Source of the DNA: a virus
Lineage: Duplodnaviria > Heunggongvirae > Uroviricota > Caudoviricetes
IMG/VR virus record: IMGVR_UViG_2529292830_000010
Reading direction: 5' to 3' (one strand)
Length of the DNA stretch: 10,016 bases
Position 1 is the first letter of the stretch. Each line of letters begins with the position of its first letter. Positions 2 to 10,016 of this stretch are shown one piece after another. The notes beneath the pieces were generated by a model. It was given only the letters and a program-made list of their open reading frames with translations. It did no database searches and was not told the DNA's origin. A program made the position numbers and the translations under genes.

Positions 2-850
2 CAGACGATGCAGGGGCGGGTACTTGATGGTGATTTAATCACTGGATGGGAAAAACGCCAGGTGCTTAAAGAGGACAACGGCAATATTTCGCAAACCGCA
101 AAATCTCCTGCAGAGCGCAAGAGGGCGCAGCGAGAGAGGGAAAGAAAGCGGGAACAAAATGGCGATTGTCACGGCGCGTCACGAAATGTCACGCATATGT
201 CACGACGAGTCACGACAGATAAAGATACAGATAAAGATACAGATCAAGAAGATCAAAACACTATGGTCCATGGCGTAAAAAACGCCACGAACCAGGCAGG
301 GGATGTTCAGACCGTCAATCTTGGTCAGCCAGCAGGCACGACACCGGAAGCCGATTCAGCGTATGCGCTGAAAGCCGATTCGGGCGCTGTGCAGCAGGTG
401 ATGACCGCAAGGCCGGAGCAATCACACCAACTGCAGCAGCCCGAAGCCGATTCCGCCATTCAGCGGGAAGCCGATCGGGTAGTCCCGGAAAACACCGGGC
501 AGTCTGTGGGACGAGTGGATTATCCGGATGTGTTCGAACAGGTCTGGCGGGAGTACCCGTTGCGTGCCGGAGCAAACCCGAAGAAATCCGCTTTCAGTGC
601 CTGGAAGGCCAGATTACGCGAGGGGGTGCCACCAGAGGCCATGCTGGATGGCGTGAGGCGTTACGCAAGATACTTGGCGGCTACCGGGAAAACGGGAACG
701 GAATTTGTTCAGCGAGCGACGACGTTTTTTGGACCGGACCGGAATTTTGAGAACCCCTGGTTGCTCCCGGTAAGCGGCACGAACAACCAGCGTTGTGTGA
801 ATCATATTTCTGAACCGGATAACGAAATTCCGCCGGGCTTCAGGGGGTAA
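2..850 (+). CDS. Phage replication protein with DnaT-like (primosomal protein I) C-terminal domain; probably 5'-partial, continuing upstream of the window (first in-frame ATG at 8)
   Basis: Long ORF in frame 2 with no stop from position 2. C-terminus ...NHISEPDNEIPPGFRG closely matches the recalled E. coli DnaT C-terminus ...VSEPDSQIPPGFRG. Internal PEADSA-type peptide repeats. Iteron-like array inside the gene at 168-214. Confidence 0.7.
   Translation, partial: QTMQGRVLDGDLITGWEKRQVLKEDNGNISQTAKSPAERKRAQRERERKREQNGDCHGASRNVTHMSRRVTTDKDTDKDTDQEDQNTMVHGVKNATNQAGDVQTVNLGQPAGTTPEADSAYALKADSGAVQQVMTARPEQSHQLQQPEADSAIQREADRVVPENTGQSVGRVDYPDVFEQVWREYPLRAGANPKKSAFSAWKARLREGVPPEAMLDGVRRYARYLAATGKTGTEFVQRATTFFGPDRNFENPWLLPVSGTNNQRCVNHISEPDNEIPPGFRG
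168..214. repeat. Five direct GTCACG repeats spaced 10-11 bp apart (iteron-like, candidate origin/initiator binding array)
   Basis: GTCACG at 168, 178, 188, 199 and 209, giving one repeat per helical turn, embedded in the replication gene. Confidence 0.5.
215..253. repeat. A-rich tandem repeat (ACAGATAAAGAT x2 plus a degenerate third copy) directly after the iteron-like array
   Basis: Perfect 12-bp tandem duplication at 215-226 and 227-238, followed by acagatcaagaagat. Encodes TDKDTDKDTDQEDQ. Resembles the A/T-rich unwinding region that follows iterons. Confidence 0.45.
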
Positions 851-890: not shown

Positions 891-1313
891 GTGGCAAAAG
901 TTTTTACACAAGAAGAGCGGGAAAAAATTAAAGGGCAGGTTGTTGAACTCGTACGCCAAAGTGGGCGCGAGACGTTACGACAACTGGAAACTAAAACTGG
1001 GGCAACAAGATATCTGATGAGCGTTCTGGCCAGAGAGCTGGTTGCCAGTGGCGATGTATACAACTCTGGTTACGGGTTATTCCCGTCTGAACAGGCGCGT
1101 AAGGACTGGCAAAATGCCCGTAAAAAGCTCTCAAGGGCAAAGCCGAAGAAACCATCTGCGGTTGATCCGGACCTAATCTGGTCATTACCAGACGGAGAAA
1201 TACGCCGCTACGACAGGCGCCTGAATATAATCTGTCGCGAGTGCCGGAAGAGCGAAGCTATGCAGCGTGTACTGGCTTTCTATCAGGGTAATTTTCAGGA
1301 GGCGGTACTGTGA
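891..1313 (+). CDS. Hypothetical phage protein (140 aa), possible helix-turn-helix
   Basis: ORF with GTG start at 891 preceded by AGGAGG (881-886). Basic C-terminal half. No family recognised with confidence. Confidence 0.55.
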   Translation: MAKVFTQEEREKIKGQVVELVRQSGRETLRQLETKTGATRYLMSVLARELVASGDVYNSGYGLFPSEQARKDWQNARKKLSRAKPKKPSAVDPDLIWSLPDGEIRRYDRRLNIICRECRKSEAMQRVLAFYQGNFQEAVL

Positions 1314-1727
1314 GTGAAATTAGCTATCAGGCTTCAATTGCCGCTGGCATTCGCATCAAAGGAGAGGAGCATGGAAATAAAACCAGAGGATTAGTTAAGC
1401 AATATCGTTTTATTTCCGATAAAAGAGGATGACCCTCGTAATCAGGTTAATTTTCTTTATGAGCCATCGGAAAGACCATATTGCCATCACGCTTCTGTCC
1501 GGGTTGACGAAAAAGAGCGTCAGGTCCGCTGTAAAATCTGCGGTGCAGTTGTGGAGCCATTTGACTGGATGCTCTCTGTGGCGAAAAGAGAAACCAGACT
1601 GGCAGATGATGTAAGGCTCTTGCGCCAGGAGGAACGGGAAAGGCGAAAAAATACAGAAAAGCTAATTCAGATTGAGCGTAACGGGAAAGCGTGGATACGC
1701 AGGGTGACAAAATCCAAAACTGAATAA
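1310..1727 (+). pseudogene. Frameshifted small phage gene: N-terminal part in frame 2 (1310-1432, VSEISYQ...), remainder in frame 0 (1395-1727, with CHH...CKIC zinc-ribbon-like motif)
   Basis: GTG at 1310 with AGGAGG at 1297-1302. Frame 2 stops at 1430-1432. Frame 0 is open from 1395 to TAA at 1725-1727 and reads like real protein but has no ATG/GTG/TTG start before 1549. N-terminus is paralogous to the ORF at 2169. Confidence 0.4.
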
Positions 1728-1820
1728 TTAAATTTAGCACTGTTAAAAATTTAATCCTTAACCGGAGGGATTTCTGCACCCTCAGAACAGCAGGAGGCCA
1801 CCCGAAAGGGCGGTAGTGAA

Positions 1821-2003
1821 ATGCGAAAGTTCAAAATAATTATTGAAACGGGAATGGCTGGTGGAGATTTCGAGGATGAATTCGAAGTGGATGCTGATGC
1901 GACGCCTGATGAAATACATGACGAAGCAAAAGATATTTTCTTTAACTACTGCAATTACTCATATCACGAAATAAAAGACGAAGAGGAAGAGCAAAATGGC
2001 TGA
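1821..2003 (+). CDS. Small highly acidic protein (60 aa)
   Basis: ATG ORF with about 18 Asp/Glu against 5 Lys/Arg. Stop overlaps the next ORF start (ATGGCTGA). Confidence 0.5.
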   Translation: MRKFKIIIETGMAGGDFEDEFEVDADATPDEIHDEAKDIFFNYCNYSYHEIKDEEEEQNG

Positions 2004-2172
2004 TTTTGGTTCAACTAAATACAACGTCAGTTTTGAAAAATGGCATGAACTGTTAATGGACTATGCAGAGTTACGTGGTGGCAGTGCTGCTGATGCTGAA
2101 GCATGGCGTGATGATTATGAAGCAGGAAAAAATCCGGTCGAAGCATATTGTGATGAGTGGGGCGATGAATGA
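1996..2172 (+). CDS. Small acidic protein (58 aa; MADFGSTKYNVSFEKWHELL...)
   Basis: ATG at 1996 overlapping the upstream stop. Its own stop overlaps the next ATG (ATGA at 2169-2172). Below the 60-aa cutoff of the ORF track. Confidence 0.4.
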   Translation: MADFGSTKYNVSFEKWHELLMDYAELRGGSAADAEAWRDDYEAGKNPVEAYCDEWGDE

Positions 2173-2456
2173 GCGAGATTAATTATCAGGAAGGGTATGA
2201 AACGGCGGAGCAAGCAAAACCAGTGGCATGGCGATATCGCTACGTGAAAAAAGGCGTTACGGACTTTCAGGAGAAGTAGTGGTCTGTTGACTGGAAATAT
2301 GTACCGAAAAAAGAGGATTGTAACGACAGGCCGAACTATCAAATTCAGGCCTTATTCACTGCCTCACCAGCCCTGGTTACATCAGAAGAACTGGTTAAAG
2401 CTGTGCACTTTTATGAACAACTAAAACGCGAAAATCCACCAACATCCGGCAACTAG
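2169..2456 (+). pseudogene. Small phage gene with in-frame amber (TAG at 2277-2279); N-terminus MSEINYQ paralogous to the ORF at 1310
   Basis: Single frame open from ATG 2169 to TAG 2454-2456 apart from the internal TAG at 2277-2279. No plausible restart codon after the TAG. Shares the KED-containing motif with frame 0 of the 1310 gene. Confidence 0.4.
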
Positions 2457-2710
2457 ATTAATGGGTTAACTATGTCGGTTAAACGACCAGCCAACTGAAA
2501 AAGCGGAAACCTGATTATAGGTTGCCAGATAAGGCAATAAGCTACCTGGCGCGGAACGGACTGATAAGTATGGGGAGTGTTTTACGATGAACCTTTAGAC
2601 TAAAGAGTTTGTAACGCTATGTAAGTGATTTTTTCTAGTTTAGATATTTATATGTCCGGCCAAATTGAGGTGTGTTTAAATGTAATTGCACATTGATTGT
2701 AGGAGGAATA

Positions 2711-3091: not shown

Positions 3092-3151
3092 ATGCGACAC
3101 ATAGAGATTAGCCTCTTACGGACCGAAAGGTCAAGGAGAAGCAGGCTATGA
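3092..3151 (+). CDS. mok-like upstream ORF (19 aa) whose stop overlaps the hok start
   Basis: ATG 3092 with GAGG 8 nt upstream. TGA at 3149-3151 overlaps the hok ATG at 3148-3150. Confidence 0.3.
   Translation: MRHIEISLLRTERSRRSRL
3105..3134 (-). promoter_or_regulatory. Candidate sok antisense promoter (minus strand: -35 TTGACC, 18-bp spacer, -10 TAATCT)
   Basis: Reverse complement of 3129-3134 and 3105-3110. The predicted antisense transcript would start near 3098 and cover the mok start and SD (3079-3094), as expected for Sok. Confidence 0.3.
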
Positions 3152-3303
3152 AGCAGCAAAAGGCGATGTTAATCGCCCTGATCGTCATCTGTTTAACCGT
3201 CATAGTGACGGCACTGGTAACGAGGAAAGACCTCTGCGAGGTACGAATCCGAACCGGCCAGACGGAGGTCGCTGTCTTCACAGTCTACGAACCTGAGGAG
3301 TAA
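3148..3303 (+). CDS. hokD: Hok family type I toxin (51 aa), HokD/RelF-like
   Basis: Translation MKQQKAMLIALIVICLTVIVTALVTRKDLCEVRIRTGQTEVAVFTVYEPEE is near-identical to my recollection of E. coli HokD (RelF). Single TM helix plus the conserved C-terminal Cys-containing periplasmic tail. Confidence 0.85.
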   Translation: MKQQKAMLIALIVICLTVIVTALVTRKDLCEVRIRTGQTEVAVFTVYEPEE

Positions 3304-6438: not shown

Positions 6439-6514
6439 GGCCCTTTAGCTCAGTGGTGAGAGCGAGCGACTCATAATCGCCAGGTCGCTGGTTCAAATCC
6501 AGCAAGGGCCACCA
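6439..6514 (+). tRNA. tRNA-Ile (anticodon CAU, lysidine-type; ileX/ileZ-like), CCA encoded
   Basis: Cloverleaf folds by hand: acceptor GGCCCTT/AAGGGCC, T-arm GCTGG-TTCAAAT-CCAGC, anticodon loop CTCATAA. Near-identical to recalled E. coli ileX. Confidence 0.9.
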
Positions 6515-6614: not shown

Positions 6615-6688
6615 GCGTTGTTAGCTCAGCCGGACAGAGCAATTGCCTTCTAAGCAATCGGTCACTGGTTCGAATCCAGTACAGCGCG
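6615..6688 (+). tRNA. tRNA-Arg (anticodon UCU)
   Basis: Acceptor GCGTTGT/ACAGCGC, D-arm GCTC...GAGC, anticodon arm ATTGC-CTTCTAA-GCAAT, T-arm ACTGG-TTCGAAT-CCAGT. CCA not encoded. Confidence 0.85.
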
Positions 6689-6801
6689 CTATATTCATTC
6701 TTCCAGATTCCTTCCGGCAGAGCCTTATACTGAAATATACCTGGCTCAGGATATTGTTGAAAATATTTTATGTTTGTCAAAAATAAAAGTTCTGTTAAGT
6801 A

Positions 6802-7155
6802 TTGATTGAGTGTTTGTTATACGGTCTAATGGTTTTTTCAGCATTAAATATTTATCATTCATATGGTGTGGGTAGAGTGAATATTGATGAGGCGTCGGGG
6901 TGTTTCATCCTTAGGCAGCGTATTGATATAGTCAATGCAGGACGAGCAAAGGCCTTCAGCCGTTTGACAGTTTTGTTCTGTACTCCTGATCGTCTTTCGG
7001 GAAGAGACGTTATTATTCTGAATAGTGATGCTATACAGAGGGTTTGCGATGAGTTCATGGTTGCTAATTCAGAATTATTTGCTCTTGTTCAGGAGTACAA
7101 CAGAATAGCCAGGACCTGTGGTATGGATGAACTTCGGATTACTCATCTGGGGTAG
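6802..7155 (+). CDS. Hypothetical moron ORF (up to 117 aa; start uncertain among TTG 6802, ATG 6829, GTG 6865)
   Basis: Open frame in the AT-rich region downstream of the tRNAs. No convincing RBS and no family recognised. Confidence 0.3.
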   Translation: MIECLLYGLMVFSALNIYHSYGVGRVNIDEASGCFILRQRIDIVNAGRAKAFSRLTVLFCTPDRLSGRDVIILNSDAIQRVCDEFMVANSELFALVQEYNRIARTCGMDELRITHLG

Positions 7156-9328: not shown

Positions 9329-9649
9329 ATGAACGCAAAAATCAGATACGGCCTGTCGGCTGCCGTTCTGGCACTGATTGCCGTCGGTGCGCCCGCGCCT
9401 GATATTCTCGACCAGTTTCTGGATGAAAAAGAAGGTAACCACACAACGGCATACCGCGATGGGTCCGGCATCTGGACCATCTGTCGGGGTGCCACGATGG
9501 TGGATGGAAAACCCGTTTTTCCCGGTATGAAACTGTCGAAGGAAAAATGCGACCAGGTCAACGCCATTGAGCGTGATAAGGCGCTGGCATGGGTGGAGCG
9601 CAATATTAAAGTACTACTGACCGAACCACAAAAAGCGGGTATAGCGTAA
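9329..9649 (+). pseudogene. R: SAR endolysin (phage-21 R-like GH24 lysozyme) truncated after about 106 codons by IS insertion
   Basis: N-terminal Ala/Gly-rich SAR segment (YGLSAAVLALIAVGAPAP). Catalytic spacing E-x8-D-x5-T in EGNHTTAYRDGSGIWT. Reading frame ends at a stop formed at the IS boundary (GCG|TAAGCG), roughly 60 codons short of a full lysozyme. Confidence 0.8.
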
Positions 9650-10016
9650 GCGACTCGTCAGAACCGTATTGATATTTACTGAGAGCTCAGATCAACTTTC
9701 CAGGGCAACAGATCGCGTACCCGGTTTGCCGGCCAGTCCTGGATATGTTCAATGACGTAACGCAGCCACTTTTCTGGCTCCACATTGTTCAGACGGCATG
9801 TGCCGATCAGCGAGTACAACACCGCCGCATGTTCACCACCGCTGTCGGAACCCGCGAACATCCAGTTTTTCCGGCCTACGGCCACTCCCCGTAAGGCGTT
9901 CTCTGCGATGTTGTTGTCGATTTCCACCCAGCCATTACTGCAGTACACGTTCAGTGCATCCCACTGTTTCAGCAGGTATGCGAACGCTTTTGCCGTATCT
10001 GAGTGACGCGACAGTG
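9646..10016 (-). mobile_element. IS66-family insertion sequence, one end only (element continues beyond window end)
   Basis: Terminus begins GTAAGCG at 9646 (characteristic IS66-family end) and the element encodes an IS66-type transposase C-terminus on the minus strand. Confidence 0.8.
9676..10016 (-). CDS. IS66-family transposase, C-terminal portion (N-terminus outside window)
   Basis: Minus-strand frame open to the window edge. Translation ...HSDTAKAFAYLLKQWDALNVYCSNGWVEIDNNIAENALRGVAVGRKNWMFAGSDSGGEHAAVLYSLIGTCRLNNVEPEKWLRYVIEHIQDWPANRVRDLLPWKVDLSSQ matches the conserved C-terminal region of IS66 transposases. Confidence 0.85.
   Translation of the reverse strand, partial: LSRHSDTAKAFAYLLKQWDALNVYCSNGWVEIDNNIAENALRGVAVGRKNWMFAGSDSGGEHAAVLYSLIGTCRLNNVEPEKWLRYVIEHIQDWPANRVRDLLPWKVDLSSQ

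Follow-up and report, generated by a model that had tools for sequence, protein, structure and literature searches.

Among the small genes in the stretch of phage DNA analysed here (10,016 nucleotides, hereafter the window), two begin in almost the same way, at positions 1310 and 2169, and both seem to be broken shortly afterwards. An earlier note on this DNA regarded them as paralogues interrupted at a homologous position, one by a frameshift and the other by an in-frame amber codon, and asked whether both are decaying pseudogenes or whether truncation, with occasional read-through or frameshifting, is itself the selected state. The sequence positions on which that question was built are correct, and most of the reading placed upon them is not. 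Of the two alternatives, decay is supported and a selected truncation is not, and most of what the note had listed as grounds for refutation has been found. The explanation that we hold to be very probable is a simple one, where ordinary and independent loss-of-function mutations have affected two unrelated accessory genes of a mosaic cryptic prophage. The significance of the case is small: an apparent recoding candidate is cleared away, and a local gene model is corrected.

The locus and its features

The element that carries both genes is a defective lambdoid prophage of E. coli (Qin/Rac-like, lambda-like). Its features between the DUF977 gene and the end of gene 2 are collected in Table 1. 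Neighbouring genes are tightly packed, with the TGA stop of the DUF977 gene and the GTG start of the mini-ORF joined in a GTGA overlap, and the stop of the 58-aa gene and the ATG of gene 2 in an ATGA overlap. All the PHROG families that were matched are annotated as “unknown function”.

Table 1. Features of the locus, in positions of the window
Feature	Positions	Strand	Basis or remark
DUF977 / Ren-like gene	891..1313	+	Pfam PF06163, E = 1.6e-29; phrog_142, Ren-like exclusion protein; RefSeq annotation
Mini-ORF “MSEISYQ...”	1310..1432	+	ea22-type head 1310-1342, tail 1343-1390 (AGIRIKGEEHGNKTRG)
Shine-Dalgarno AAGGAG of gene 1	1359..1364	+	read from the sequence
Gene 1, zinc-ribbon / basic coiled-coil protein, 118 codons	1371..1727	+	phrog_1621, E = 1.5e-56; intact orthologues
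TAG replacing GAG, codon 8 of gene 1	1392..1394	+	alignment to 640R1; allele-specific 55-mers
DUF7167 small gene, intact	1821..2003	+	Pfam PF23768, E = 4.8e-14; RefSeq annotation
58-aa gene, phrog_519, intact	1996..2172	+	ORF, RefSeq and PHROG comparison
Gene 2, pseudogene, phrog_660 family	2169..2590	+	RefSeq “frameshifted; internal stop”; 237 homologues
A6 homopolymer	2247..2252	+	A8 in the 640R1-type sister lineage (alignments)
First amber of gene 2, codon 37	2277..2279	+	sense codon in relatives
Second amber of gene 2, codon 96	2454..2456	+	CAG in intact relatives
Approximate frameshift site relative to the longest relatives	2486..2503	+	three-frame translation against P0005 and L010

A shared head and the remnant of an ea22-type gene

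The resemblance between the two starts is real. The one at 1310 (GTGAGTGAAATTAGCTATCAGG) and the one at 2169 (ATGAGCGAGATTAATTATCAGG) are identical at 18 of 22 nucleotides, giving MSEISYQ and MSEINYQ, and a degenerate pattern covering both finds these two sites and no other in the window, with none expected from 200 shuffles. The paralogy that had been read into it does not hold, since BLASTP between intact relatives of the two genes (118 and 119 aa) gives a non-significant E value of 1.4. The second motif that they were said to share, FP[IK]KED..N, falls in that same non-significant alignment and fails a proper one. The PHROG families differ as well, with phrog_1621 for gene 1 and phrog_660 for gene 2.

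The 22-nt head itself is common to lambda ea22 (MSEINSQALRE) and to two genes of phage ArgO145, gp18 (VSKIDYQELRE) and gp13 (MSEIDYQALRE), whose products match Pfam Ead_Ea22 with E values of about 1e-39. The second of these, gp13, occupies the slot of gene 2 after the same upstream gene, and its homology with gene 2 stops directly past the head, at window position 2190. Judged by these comparisons, genes 1 and 2 are not homologous, with nothing in common beyond a 22-nt head of the ea22 type, and both MSEI[S/N]YQ starts are the conserved head of the Ead/Ea22 family, which carries differing bodies in different phages. Since the seven shared codons are the standard head of this family, they point to ordinary gene decay instead of a designed interruption.

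In lambda, ea22 (Ead/Ea22-like, PF13935) is a pro-lysogenic gene of the exo-xis region, and in the Ea22 proteins the N-terminal part is conserved, the C-terminal domains vary, and the last residues are again shared, as a K/RGE end (PMC7093339, PMC10834534). This published description fits the mosaic picture of the locus. Lambda ea22 starts with GTGAGCGAAATTAAC.. and ends with GCTGGCATTCGCATCAAAGGAGAGTGA (MSEINSQALRE and AGIRIKGE*, respectively). The head of the mini-ORF at 1310 (GTGAGTGAAATTAGCTATCAGGC) matches the lambda start (GTGAGCGAAATTAACTCTCAGGC) at approximately 21 of 26 nucleotides, and its segment GCTGGCATTCGCATCAAAGGAGAG (AGIRIKGE) is identical, at 24 of 24 positions, to the last 24 nucleotides of lambda ea22 before the stop; the C-terminal end of ArgO145 gp18 likewise reads ..AGIRIKGEEHGNKTRG*. 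The mini-ORF thus consists of the head of a lambda ea22-type gene and its final codons, and the body is missing. Since it is the DNA of this head and tail that matches lambda ea22, the mini-ORF is the remnant of an Ead/Ea22 family member and not itself a member, a parentage that was traced through DNA comparison with lambda ea22, ArgO145 gp18 and 689R5. Unlike lambda Ea22, it lacks the whole body (27 codons in its ancestral form against 182), and the 40-aa product encoded in the window has no Pfam match, Ead_Ea22 (PF13935) included. When this 40-aa product was compared with a set of 5.8 billion proteins, 12 small ORFs were recovered, with no protein of Ea22 size among them. The ancestral 27-codon form is present in L002 and L005-L008, and its head-tail junction occurs in 1196 genomes. 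The position of the module also differs from that in lambda: it follows the replication and DUF977 genes instead of sitting between exo and xis. As for gene 2, its first approximately 17 residues (MSEINYQEGYETAEQAK) resemble the lambda N-terminus (MSEINSQALREAAEQAM), although its body belongs to another family, phrog_660.

Lesions in two unrelated genes

An ORF does run from 1310 to 1432, as the earlier note reported, and a second frame is indeed open from 1395 to 1727. This second frame was taken to be the displaced continuation of the first one, without a start codon; in fact it is part of a distinct gene that has an ATG and a Shine-Dalgarno sequence of its own and is interrupted not by a frameshift but by an amber at codon 8. 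For this reason the interruptions of genes 1 and 2 do not lie at a homologous position: that of gene 1 is the eighth codon of an unrelated gene. The annotated 118-aa orthologues begin at window 1371, with ATG in ArgO145 gp17 and GTG in 689R5, and the same Shine-Dalgarno block, which in the window falls within the ea22 tail, in its K-G-E codons (1358-1366), precedes the annotated start in both. Because the DNA of ArgO145 and 689R5 upstream of approximately 1343 is unrelated to the window, MSEISYQ is not the N-terminus of gene 1. The ArgO145 orthologue (gp17, YP_009907882.1, phrog_1621), a hypothetical protein known from Stx phages and other lambdoid ones, agrees with gene 1 in length, start and stop, and likewise follows the tail of an Ea22-like gene. 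Over its 118 codons, it differs from the window by seven amino acids and by the TAG at codon 8. In Pfam, gene 1 gives only a weak Zn_Ribbon_TF match, below the cut-off.

Intact homologues, which the earlier note had suggested for comparison, exist for gene 1, whose 118 codons form one unbroken ORF in ArgO145 gp17, 689R5, 640R1, L005-L008 and L010. In 640R1, which is 96.7 % identical to the window across the region, and in six sampled E. coli loci, codon 8 is GAG. Roughly 2600 E. coli genomes match the locus. Among 5426 complete E. coli genomes, the TAG allele occurs in 91 and the GAG allele in at least 1418, counts which, like all those made here with allele-specific 55-mers for both genes, are lower bounds that miss copies with a second SNP within 27 nt. 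The lesion is absent from all phage orthologues too, and the amber of gene 1 is a rare derived allele.

A single G-to-T transversion at 1392 accounts for this appearance. The base belongs to two overlapping frames: in gene 1 it turns GAG into TAG, and in the other frame it removes the stop of the mini-ORF, whose ancestral TGA at 1391-1393 reads TTA in the window, so that its 27 codons become 40. One change in an overlap has thus killed one ORF and lengthened the other, mimicking a frameshifted gene, and hence the impression of a MSEISYQ gene carried on in a second frame; the false look of kinship between genes 1 and 2 comes from the ea22-type deletion remnant. RefSeq models here a 40-aa ORF and a 108-aa ORF initiated at ATC 1404, both as intact genes; what the DNA contains is an ea22 remnant and a 118-aa gene inactivated by an amber. 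A truncated gene 1 product may still initiate past the amber, for example at that same ATC.

Gene 2 starts with an ea22-type head (2169-2190), followed by the core “AWRYRYVKKG...KRENPP” of its family. In all the sampled genomes of the window type, RefSeq annotates gene 2 as a pseudogene. The 237 homologues are mostly intact, with lengths of 119-157 aa, and its relatives match phrog_660. With proteins of this family (WP_005069274.1, 138 aa; P0005, 141 aa; 689R5 URC08893.1, 119 aa) it shares the core AWRYRYVKKG...DWKYVP.KEDCNDRPNY.IQALF...KRENPP at 75-95 % identity, and differs from them by its pair of ambers and its shifted 3′ end. Intact versions exist in 689R5 (119 aa), L013/L014 (138 aa), P0005 (141 aa) and L010 (171 aa); in an intact relative, Pfam finds no domain, Ead_Ea22 included. 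Mosaicism extends to the family as a whole, whose N-termini come in at least three alternative forms and whose C-termini come in several.

The in-frame TAG at 2277 is present as described. At this codon, L010 has CTG and L013/L014 have TTG, and 689R5 (L004), alone among the sampled relatives in sharing the flanking codons, has CAG. A second amber at 2454 and a frameshift further downstream had been overlooked. At the second site, P0001 and L013/L014 read ..SGNQINGLTM.., and by 55-mers for this codon 572 genomes carry TAG, against 25 with CAG. Past it, frame 0 of gene 2 ends at a TGA (2496-2498), and the homologous tail (..PDYRLPDKAISYLARNGLISMGSVLR*) runs in another frame to the TGA at 2588-2590. 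Gene 2 carries, then, two ambers and a 3′ frameshift. In both genes, translation would end at the ambers and the products would be lost, and the lesions presumably persist because the prophage is cryptic, so that selection has ceased to act on the genes in those lineages.

Decay against recoding

The reading most worth weighing against decay is that of a selected leaky termination, where rare read-through would supply a useful low dose of the protein or the truncated peptides would themselves be functional. The ambers of gene 2, common to hundreds of genomes, give it some footing, as does the identity of the three premature stops, since TAG is of all stop codons the one most readily suppressed. 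That the stops at 1392, 2277 and 2454 are all amber is in itself mildly unusual. The gene 2 ambers dominate their own haplotype, with TAG-2277 in at least 299 complete genomes against none with CAG (a count that L011-type copies escape despite having the amber) and TAG-2454 at the ratio given above; taken alone, this could be read as conservation. Within the wider family of 237 proteins, these ambers are a derived state which dominates one haplotype clade. The 640R1-type sister lineage shares TAG-2277, and there the A6-to-A8 insertion and a 57-bp deletion put this amber out of the frame of the start codon, and the region holding TAG-2454 has been deleted. Since the ambers were inherited by a clade that adds lesions heedless of the frame, they reflect the shared descent of a dead gene and not selection. 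The amber of gene 1, for its part, is a minority allele.

Rates of substitution, on small counts, lean the same way, with purifying selection visible in intact copies and not in the interrupted copies of the window. Pairs of intact gene 1 copies give pN/pS values of 0.03-0.17, apart from L004/L006 at 0.32, and intact gene 2 copies 0.19-0.26. Set against L005, the intact relative closest to it, the window gene 1 shows no synonymous, five non-synonymous and one nonsense codon over 118, and gene 2 against other interrupted copies gives 1.1-1.6 from very few substitutions; the contrasts for interrupted copies are based on 5-7 substitutions. No synonymous excess is thus seen in the interrupted copies of the window. 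Other interrupted gene 2 pairs fall at 0.27-0.40, and some of them (L005 vs L011) are as low as intact pairs.

The tRNAs encoded in the window are Met-CAT and Arg-TCT only, so a phage-encoded amber suppressor was rejected for this stretch, and to our knowledge amber suppressors are generally absent from natural E. coli isolates. An alternative code with TAG as glutamine was discarded on the same lack of a suppressor tRNA in the prophage, and because interrupted copies carry other frame-breaking lesions; one putative ORF of the window (6802-7155) ends in TAG. Altogether, we consider selected leaky termination very unlikely, and independent decay remains our reading.

Less credible still, and highly improbable, is a programmed +1 frameshift that would lead from the MSEISYQ frame into that of gene 1 past the amber (1395-1429), producing a fusion of an Ea22 head and a zinc ribbon. 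Such fusions occur naturally in frame, joining an Ea22 N-domain to the zinc-ribbon body in P0125 (202 aa) and P0164, and in one genome (P0158) a 1-nt deletion joins mini-ORF and gene 1; in the window allele, moreover, the mini-ORF does extend beyond the amber. However, the common allele of the mini-ORF ends at 1391-1393, so that the overlap permitting a shift is limited to the derived allele of 91 genomes, gene 1 has its own initiation signals, and in L010 the mini-ORF is merely the tail of the DUF977 gene. Inspected by eye, the stretch 1395-1432 shows no known +1 slippery motif preceded by a stimulatory Shine-Dalgarno. Programmed recoding is known from the +1 frameshift of prfB, the -1 frameshift of dnaX and the read-through of the Qbeta coat gene. 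The resemblance to such systems is superficial, an ORF that seems to continue in another frame and some in-frame stops: here diverged relatives do not keep the interruption, related copies lose the frame by different routes, translation of the downstream ORF has a start site of its own, and no recoding signal was seen in the stretch inspected.

Errors of sequencing or assembly in a single genome, for which only the indel-prone poly-A at 2247-2252 speaks, are effectively refuted and of negligible probability because the alleles recur across independent assemblies: the three stops are substitutions and not homopolymer indels, independent complete genomes carry them in identical form (91, at least 299 and 572, respectively), so that the lesions are not unique to one genome, and five records are 100.0 % identical to a 1251-nt query from the locus, with strain ATCC 43886 matching at 100 % throughout 1250-2500.

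A modular head and tail

The decay of these two genes leaves one wider point, the modularity of the ea22 head and tail, which is in line with the established mosaicism of lambdoid genomes. A speculative and rather doubtful extension is that the head (RTGAGYGARATT..TATCAGG) and the tail (GCTGGCATTCGCATCAAAGGAGAG) could act as recombination linkers, with which lambdoid phages swap gene bodies in fixed slots. Were this so, the 27-codon mini-ORF of about 1200 E. coli genomes would be an “empty slot”, and a second slot would be filled in one case by gene 2 and in another by ArgO145 gp13; the ambers would still be plain decay. It would also explain the K/RGE end of the Ea22 proteins, the significance of which has been stated as unknown (PMC7093339). 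In the window, the ea22 tail GCTGGCATTCGCATCAAAGGAGAG doubles as the Shine-Dalgarno sequence of the next gene.

Interrupted genes in a mosaic prophage

The window is a portion of an E. coli lambdoid prophage that encodes, among others, replication and lysis functions, two tRNAs and a DUF977/Ren-like protein. The interruptions of its two small genes are ordinary pseudogenisation; the prophage is cryptic and mosaic, and nothing in them departs from known biology. The earlier note had described two paralogous MSEI[S/N]YQ genes interrupted at a homologous position, either by decay or as a selected state, and this observation stands only in part. Both 22-nt gene starts hold up (a degenerate pattern written to cover them matches these sites alone, against none expected by chance), as do the ORF 1310-1432, the open frame 1395-1727 and the TAG at 2277-2279, and the alternative of decaying pseudogenes is supported. 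The framing as paralogues interrupted at a homologous position is rejected: gene 1 and gene 2 belong to different PHROG families (1621 versus 660), intact relatives give a BLASTP E of 1.4, and the later motif thought to link both genes is not significant.

The segment 1250-2500 is 100 % identical to the chromosome of several complete genomes, such as ATCC 43886; among 5426 complete E. coli genomes, 1048 match it over at least 80 % of its length. Related phages, free or induced, include vB_EcoS-640R1 (96.7 % identity), 689R5, and ArgO145 with other Stx2a phages.

Features of the window, with positions in window coordinates
Feature	Position	Remarks
ea22 remnant (MSEISYQ ORF)	1310-1432 (+)	
ea22 head	1310-1342	
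ea22 tail	1343-1366	identical to lambda ea22 tail
K/RGE codons, AAAGGAGAG	1358-1366	AAA GGA GAG
AAGGAG	1359-1364	precedes gene 1 start
Gene 1	1371-1727 (+)	zinc-ribbon protein, phrog_1621
Gene 2	2169-2590 (+)	starts MSEINYQ, phrog_660
Gene 2, first A6 tract	2247-2252	A8 in 640R1-type lineage
Gene 2, lesion 1	2277	TAG at codon 37; CAG in 689R5, the only sampled relative that shares the flanking codons
Gene 2, second A6 tract	2306-2311	
Gene 2, lesion 2	2454	TAG at codon 96; CAG in intact copies
Gene 2, lesion 3	2588-2590	shifted 3' end; homologous tail in another frame, to this TGA
hok-type ORF	3148-3303	by eye; related loci have hokD annotated
rusA-like and Q-like ORFs		by eye
tRNA-Met(CAT) and tRNA-Arg(TCT)	6439-6514 and 6615-6689	downstream of Q-like gene
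Lysozyme-like ORF	9329-9649 (+)	by eye, translation
Putative IS66-family fragment	9676-9948 (-)	by eye, translation; resembles transposase C-terminus

A nonsense codon in gene 1

The extent of gene 1 is indicated by its phage orthologues, ArgO145 gp17 and that of 689R5, which are annotated with an ATG and a GTG start, respectively, at the position of window 1371; both span 118 aa, up to the position of 1727. Upstream of ~1343 the DNA of these two phages is unrelated to that of the window, so MSEISYQ is not part of gene 1. A G→T change at 1392, which sets the window apart from 640R1 and six sampled E. coli loci, converts codon 8 from GAG to TAG, and gene 1 is therefore nonsense-mutated, not frameshifted as had been proposed. 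Alleles were counted with allele-specific 55-mers centred on the SNP, across whose mismatch megablast is unable to seed, and among complete E. coli genomes TAG occurs in 91 and GAG in 1418.

Intact copies of gene 1 are under purifying selection (pN/pS of 0.03-0.17, with one pair at 0.32), and the window copy and its nearest intact relative, the sampled locus L005, differ, apart from the nonsense codon, by five changes, all of them non-synonymous. The first canonical in-frame start past the amber, GTG 1551, would cost half of the zinc ribbon; RefSeq calls an ATC start at 1404. A 140-aa variant found on 15 contigs (P0121) is 99 % identical to the window gene 1 and has its lineage-specific residues except T94; its N-terminal 30 aa are unrelated, and the join falls precisely at LSNIV, the first codon past the amber position (window ~1395 onward); this junction may reflect a rearrangement or insertion at that point.

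An ea22 remnant and its shared head

Lambda ea22 starts with GTGAGCGAAATTAACTCTCAGGCACTG (MSEINSQALRE...) and ends with ...GCTGGCATTCGCATCAAAGGAGAGTGA (...AGIRIKGE and stop), and gp18 of ArgO145, an Ead/Ea22-like protein (Pfam E = 7.6e-40), shares with the MSEISYQ mini-ORF the exact same ending, ...AGIRIKGEEHGNKTRG followed by the stop. By these matches at head and tail, the MSEISYQ ORF is an ea22-type gene of which only ~11 codons at the start and 16 at the end are left. The head-tail junction is found in 1196 complete genomes, where the remnant usually ends after 27 codons at TGA 1391-1393. With T at 1392 this TGA becomes TTA, and the remnant grows to 40 codons through the very SNP that kills gene 1; the remnant is a RefSeq CDS only in genomes with this T. 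In the E. coli isolate AF20 (locus L010, 1006-1497), the frame of a variant DUF977 gene continues through the remnant, which there forms the tail of a longer annotated DUF977 protein.

The same head starts lambda ea22 and ArgO145 gp18 and gp13; the latter, also Ea22-like, lies in the gene 2 slot behind the same upstream gene, and its homology to the window stops at 2190, directly past the head. Ea22 proteins have been described as conserved in their N-terminal part and divergent in their C-terminal domains, with a K/RGE end in common (PMC7093339; PMC10834534), so MSEI.YQ is a family head joined to different bodies by mosaic recombination, and its presence in both window genes is no evidence of paralogy between them. 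The zinc-ribbon body of gene 1 can itself act, and circulates, as an Ea22 C-terminal module, since it occurs naturally fused, in frame, to an Ea22 N-terminal domain in P0125 (202 aa, E. marmotae) and in P0164; in these two the DNA itself is fused, and recoding plays no part. The mini-ORF and gene 1 are joined by a 1-nt deletion in one genome (P0158).

The sole loosely interesting by-product is that the head and tail of ea22 are modular, and that the K-G-E codons of the tail overlap the Shine-Dalgarno of the next gene. The significance of the K/RGE tripeptide has been stated as unknown (PMC7093339). Its codons, also present at 1519-1527 in 689R5 (L004) and at 551-559 (- strand) in lambda (L015), double in the window as the Shine-Dalgarno of the next gene, which starts with ATG 1371 here and with GTG in 689R5. 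Lambda, however, has no gene at that spacing behind them, so this may explain the tripeptide in some phages only.

Old lesions in gene 2 and the prophage around it

In the large protein set, 237 proteins make up the gene 2 family; they are mostly 119-157 aa long, with a shared core and alternative N- and C-termini. Compared with intact copies, the window gene carries three lesions (see table), and all sampled genomes of this type have it labelled 'frameshifted; internal stop' in RefSeq. At least 299 genomes have TAG-2277 and none matches the same 55-mer with CAG in its place; at 2454, TAG is found in 572 and CAG in 25. These counts indicate that the ambers are old and clade-inherited. The 640R1-type sublineage has an extra A6→A8 insertion upstream of the first amber and a 57-bp deletion that takes out the second, so that the ORF from the start codon reads 85 out-of-frame codons. 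Values of pN/pS are 0.19-0.26 for intact copies, 0.27-0.40 for other interrupted pairs, and 1.1-1.6, on few substitutions, for the window versus other interrupted copies.

The alternative that read-through or frameshifting is the selected state at both genes fares poorly: the gene 1 interruption is a rare allele, that of gene 2 falls out of frame in sister lineages, no recoding signal was seen on inspection, and the tRNAs of the window are limited to Met(CAT) and Arg(TCT), with no suppressor among them.

A6 tracts lie on either side of the first gene 2 amber, and three database proteins (P0017, P0027 and P0029) are out of frame from the first tract to the second or just before it, a pattern that suggests repeated homopolymer slippage. 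In E. coli O43 RM10042 (L011, 295-477), an internal stop is annotated in the adjacent DUF7167 gene as well, and the locus has IS fragments on either side; in this lineage the entire module is in decay.

The tRNA pair presumably resembles the tRNA genes that Stx phages and lambdoid phages related to them have beside Q, and the CAT tRNA may be of the Ile2 type. At the far end of the window, the lysozyme-like ORF seems to stop abruptly beside the putative IS66-family fragment; ATCC 43886 has instead a complete IS66 at the position of window ~2668, so different copies of the prophage are marked by different IS66 insertions.
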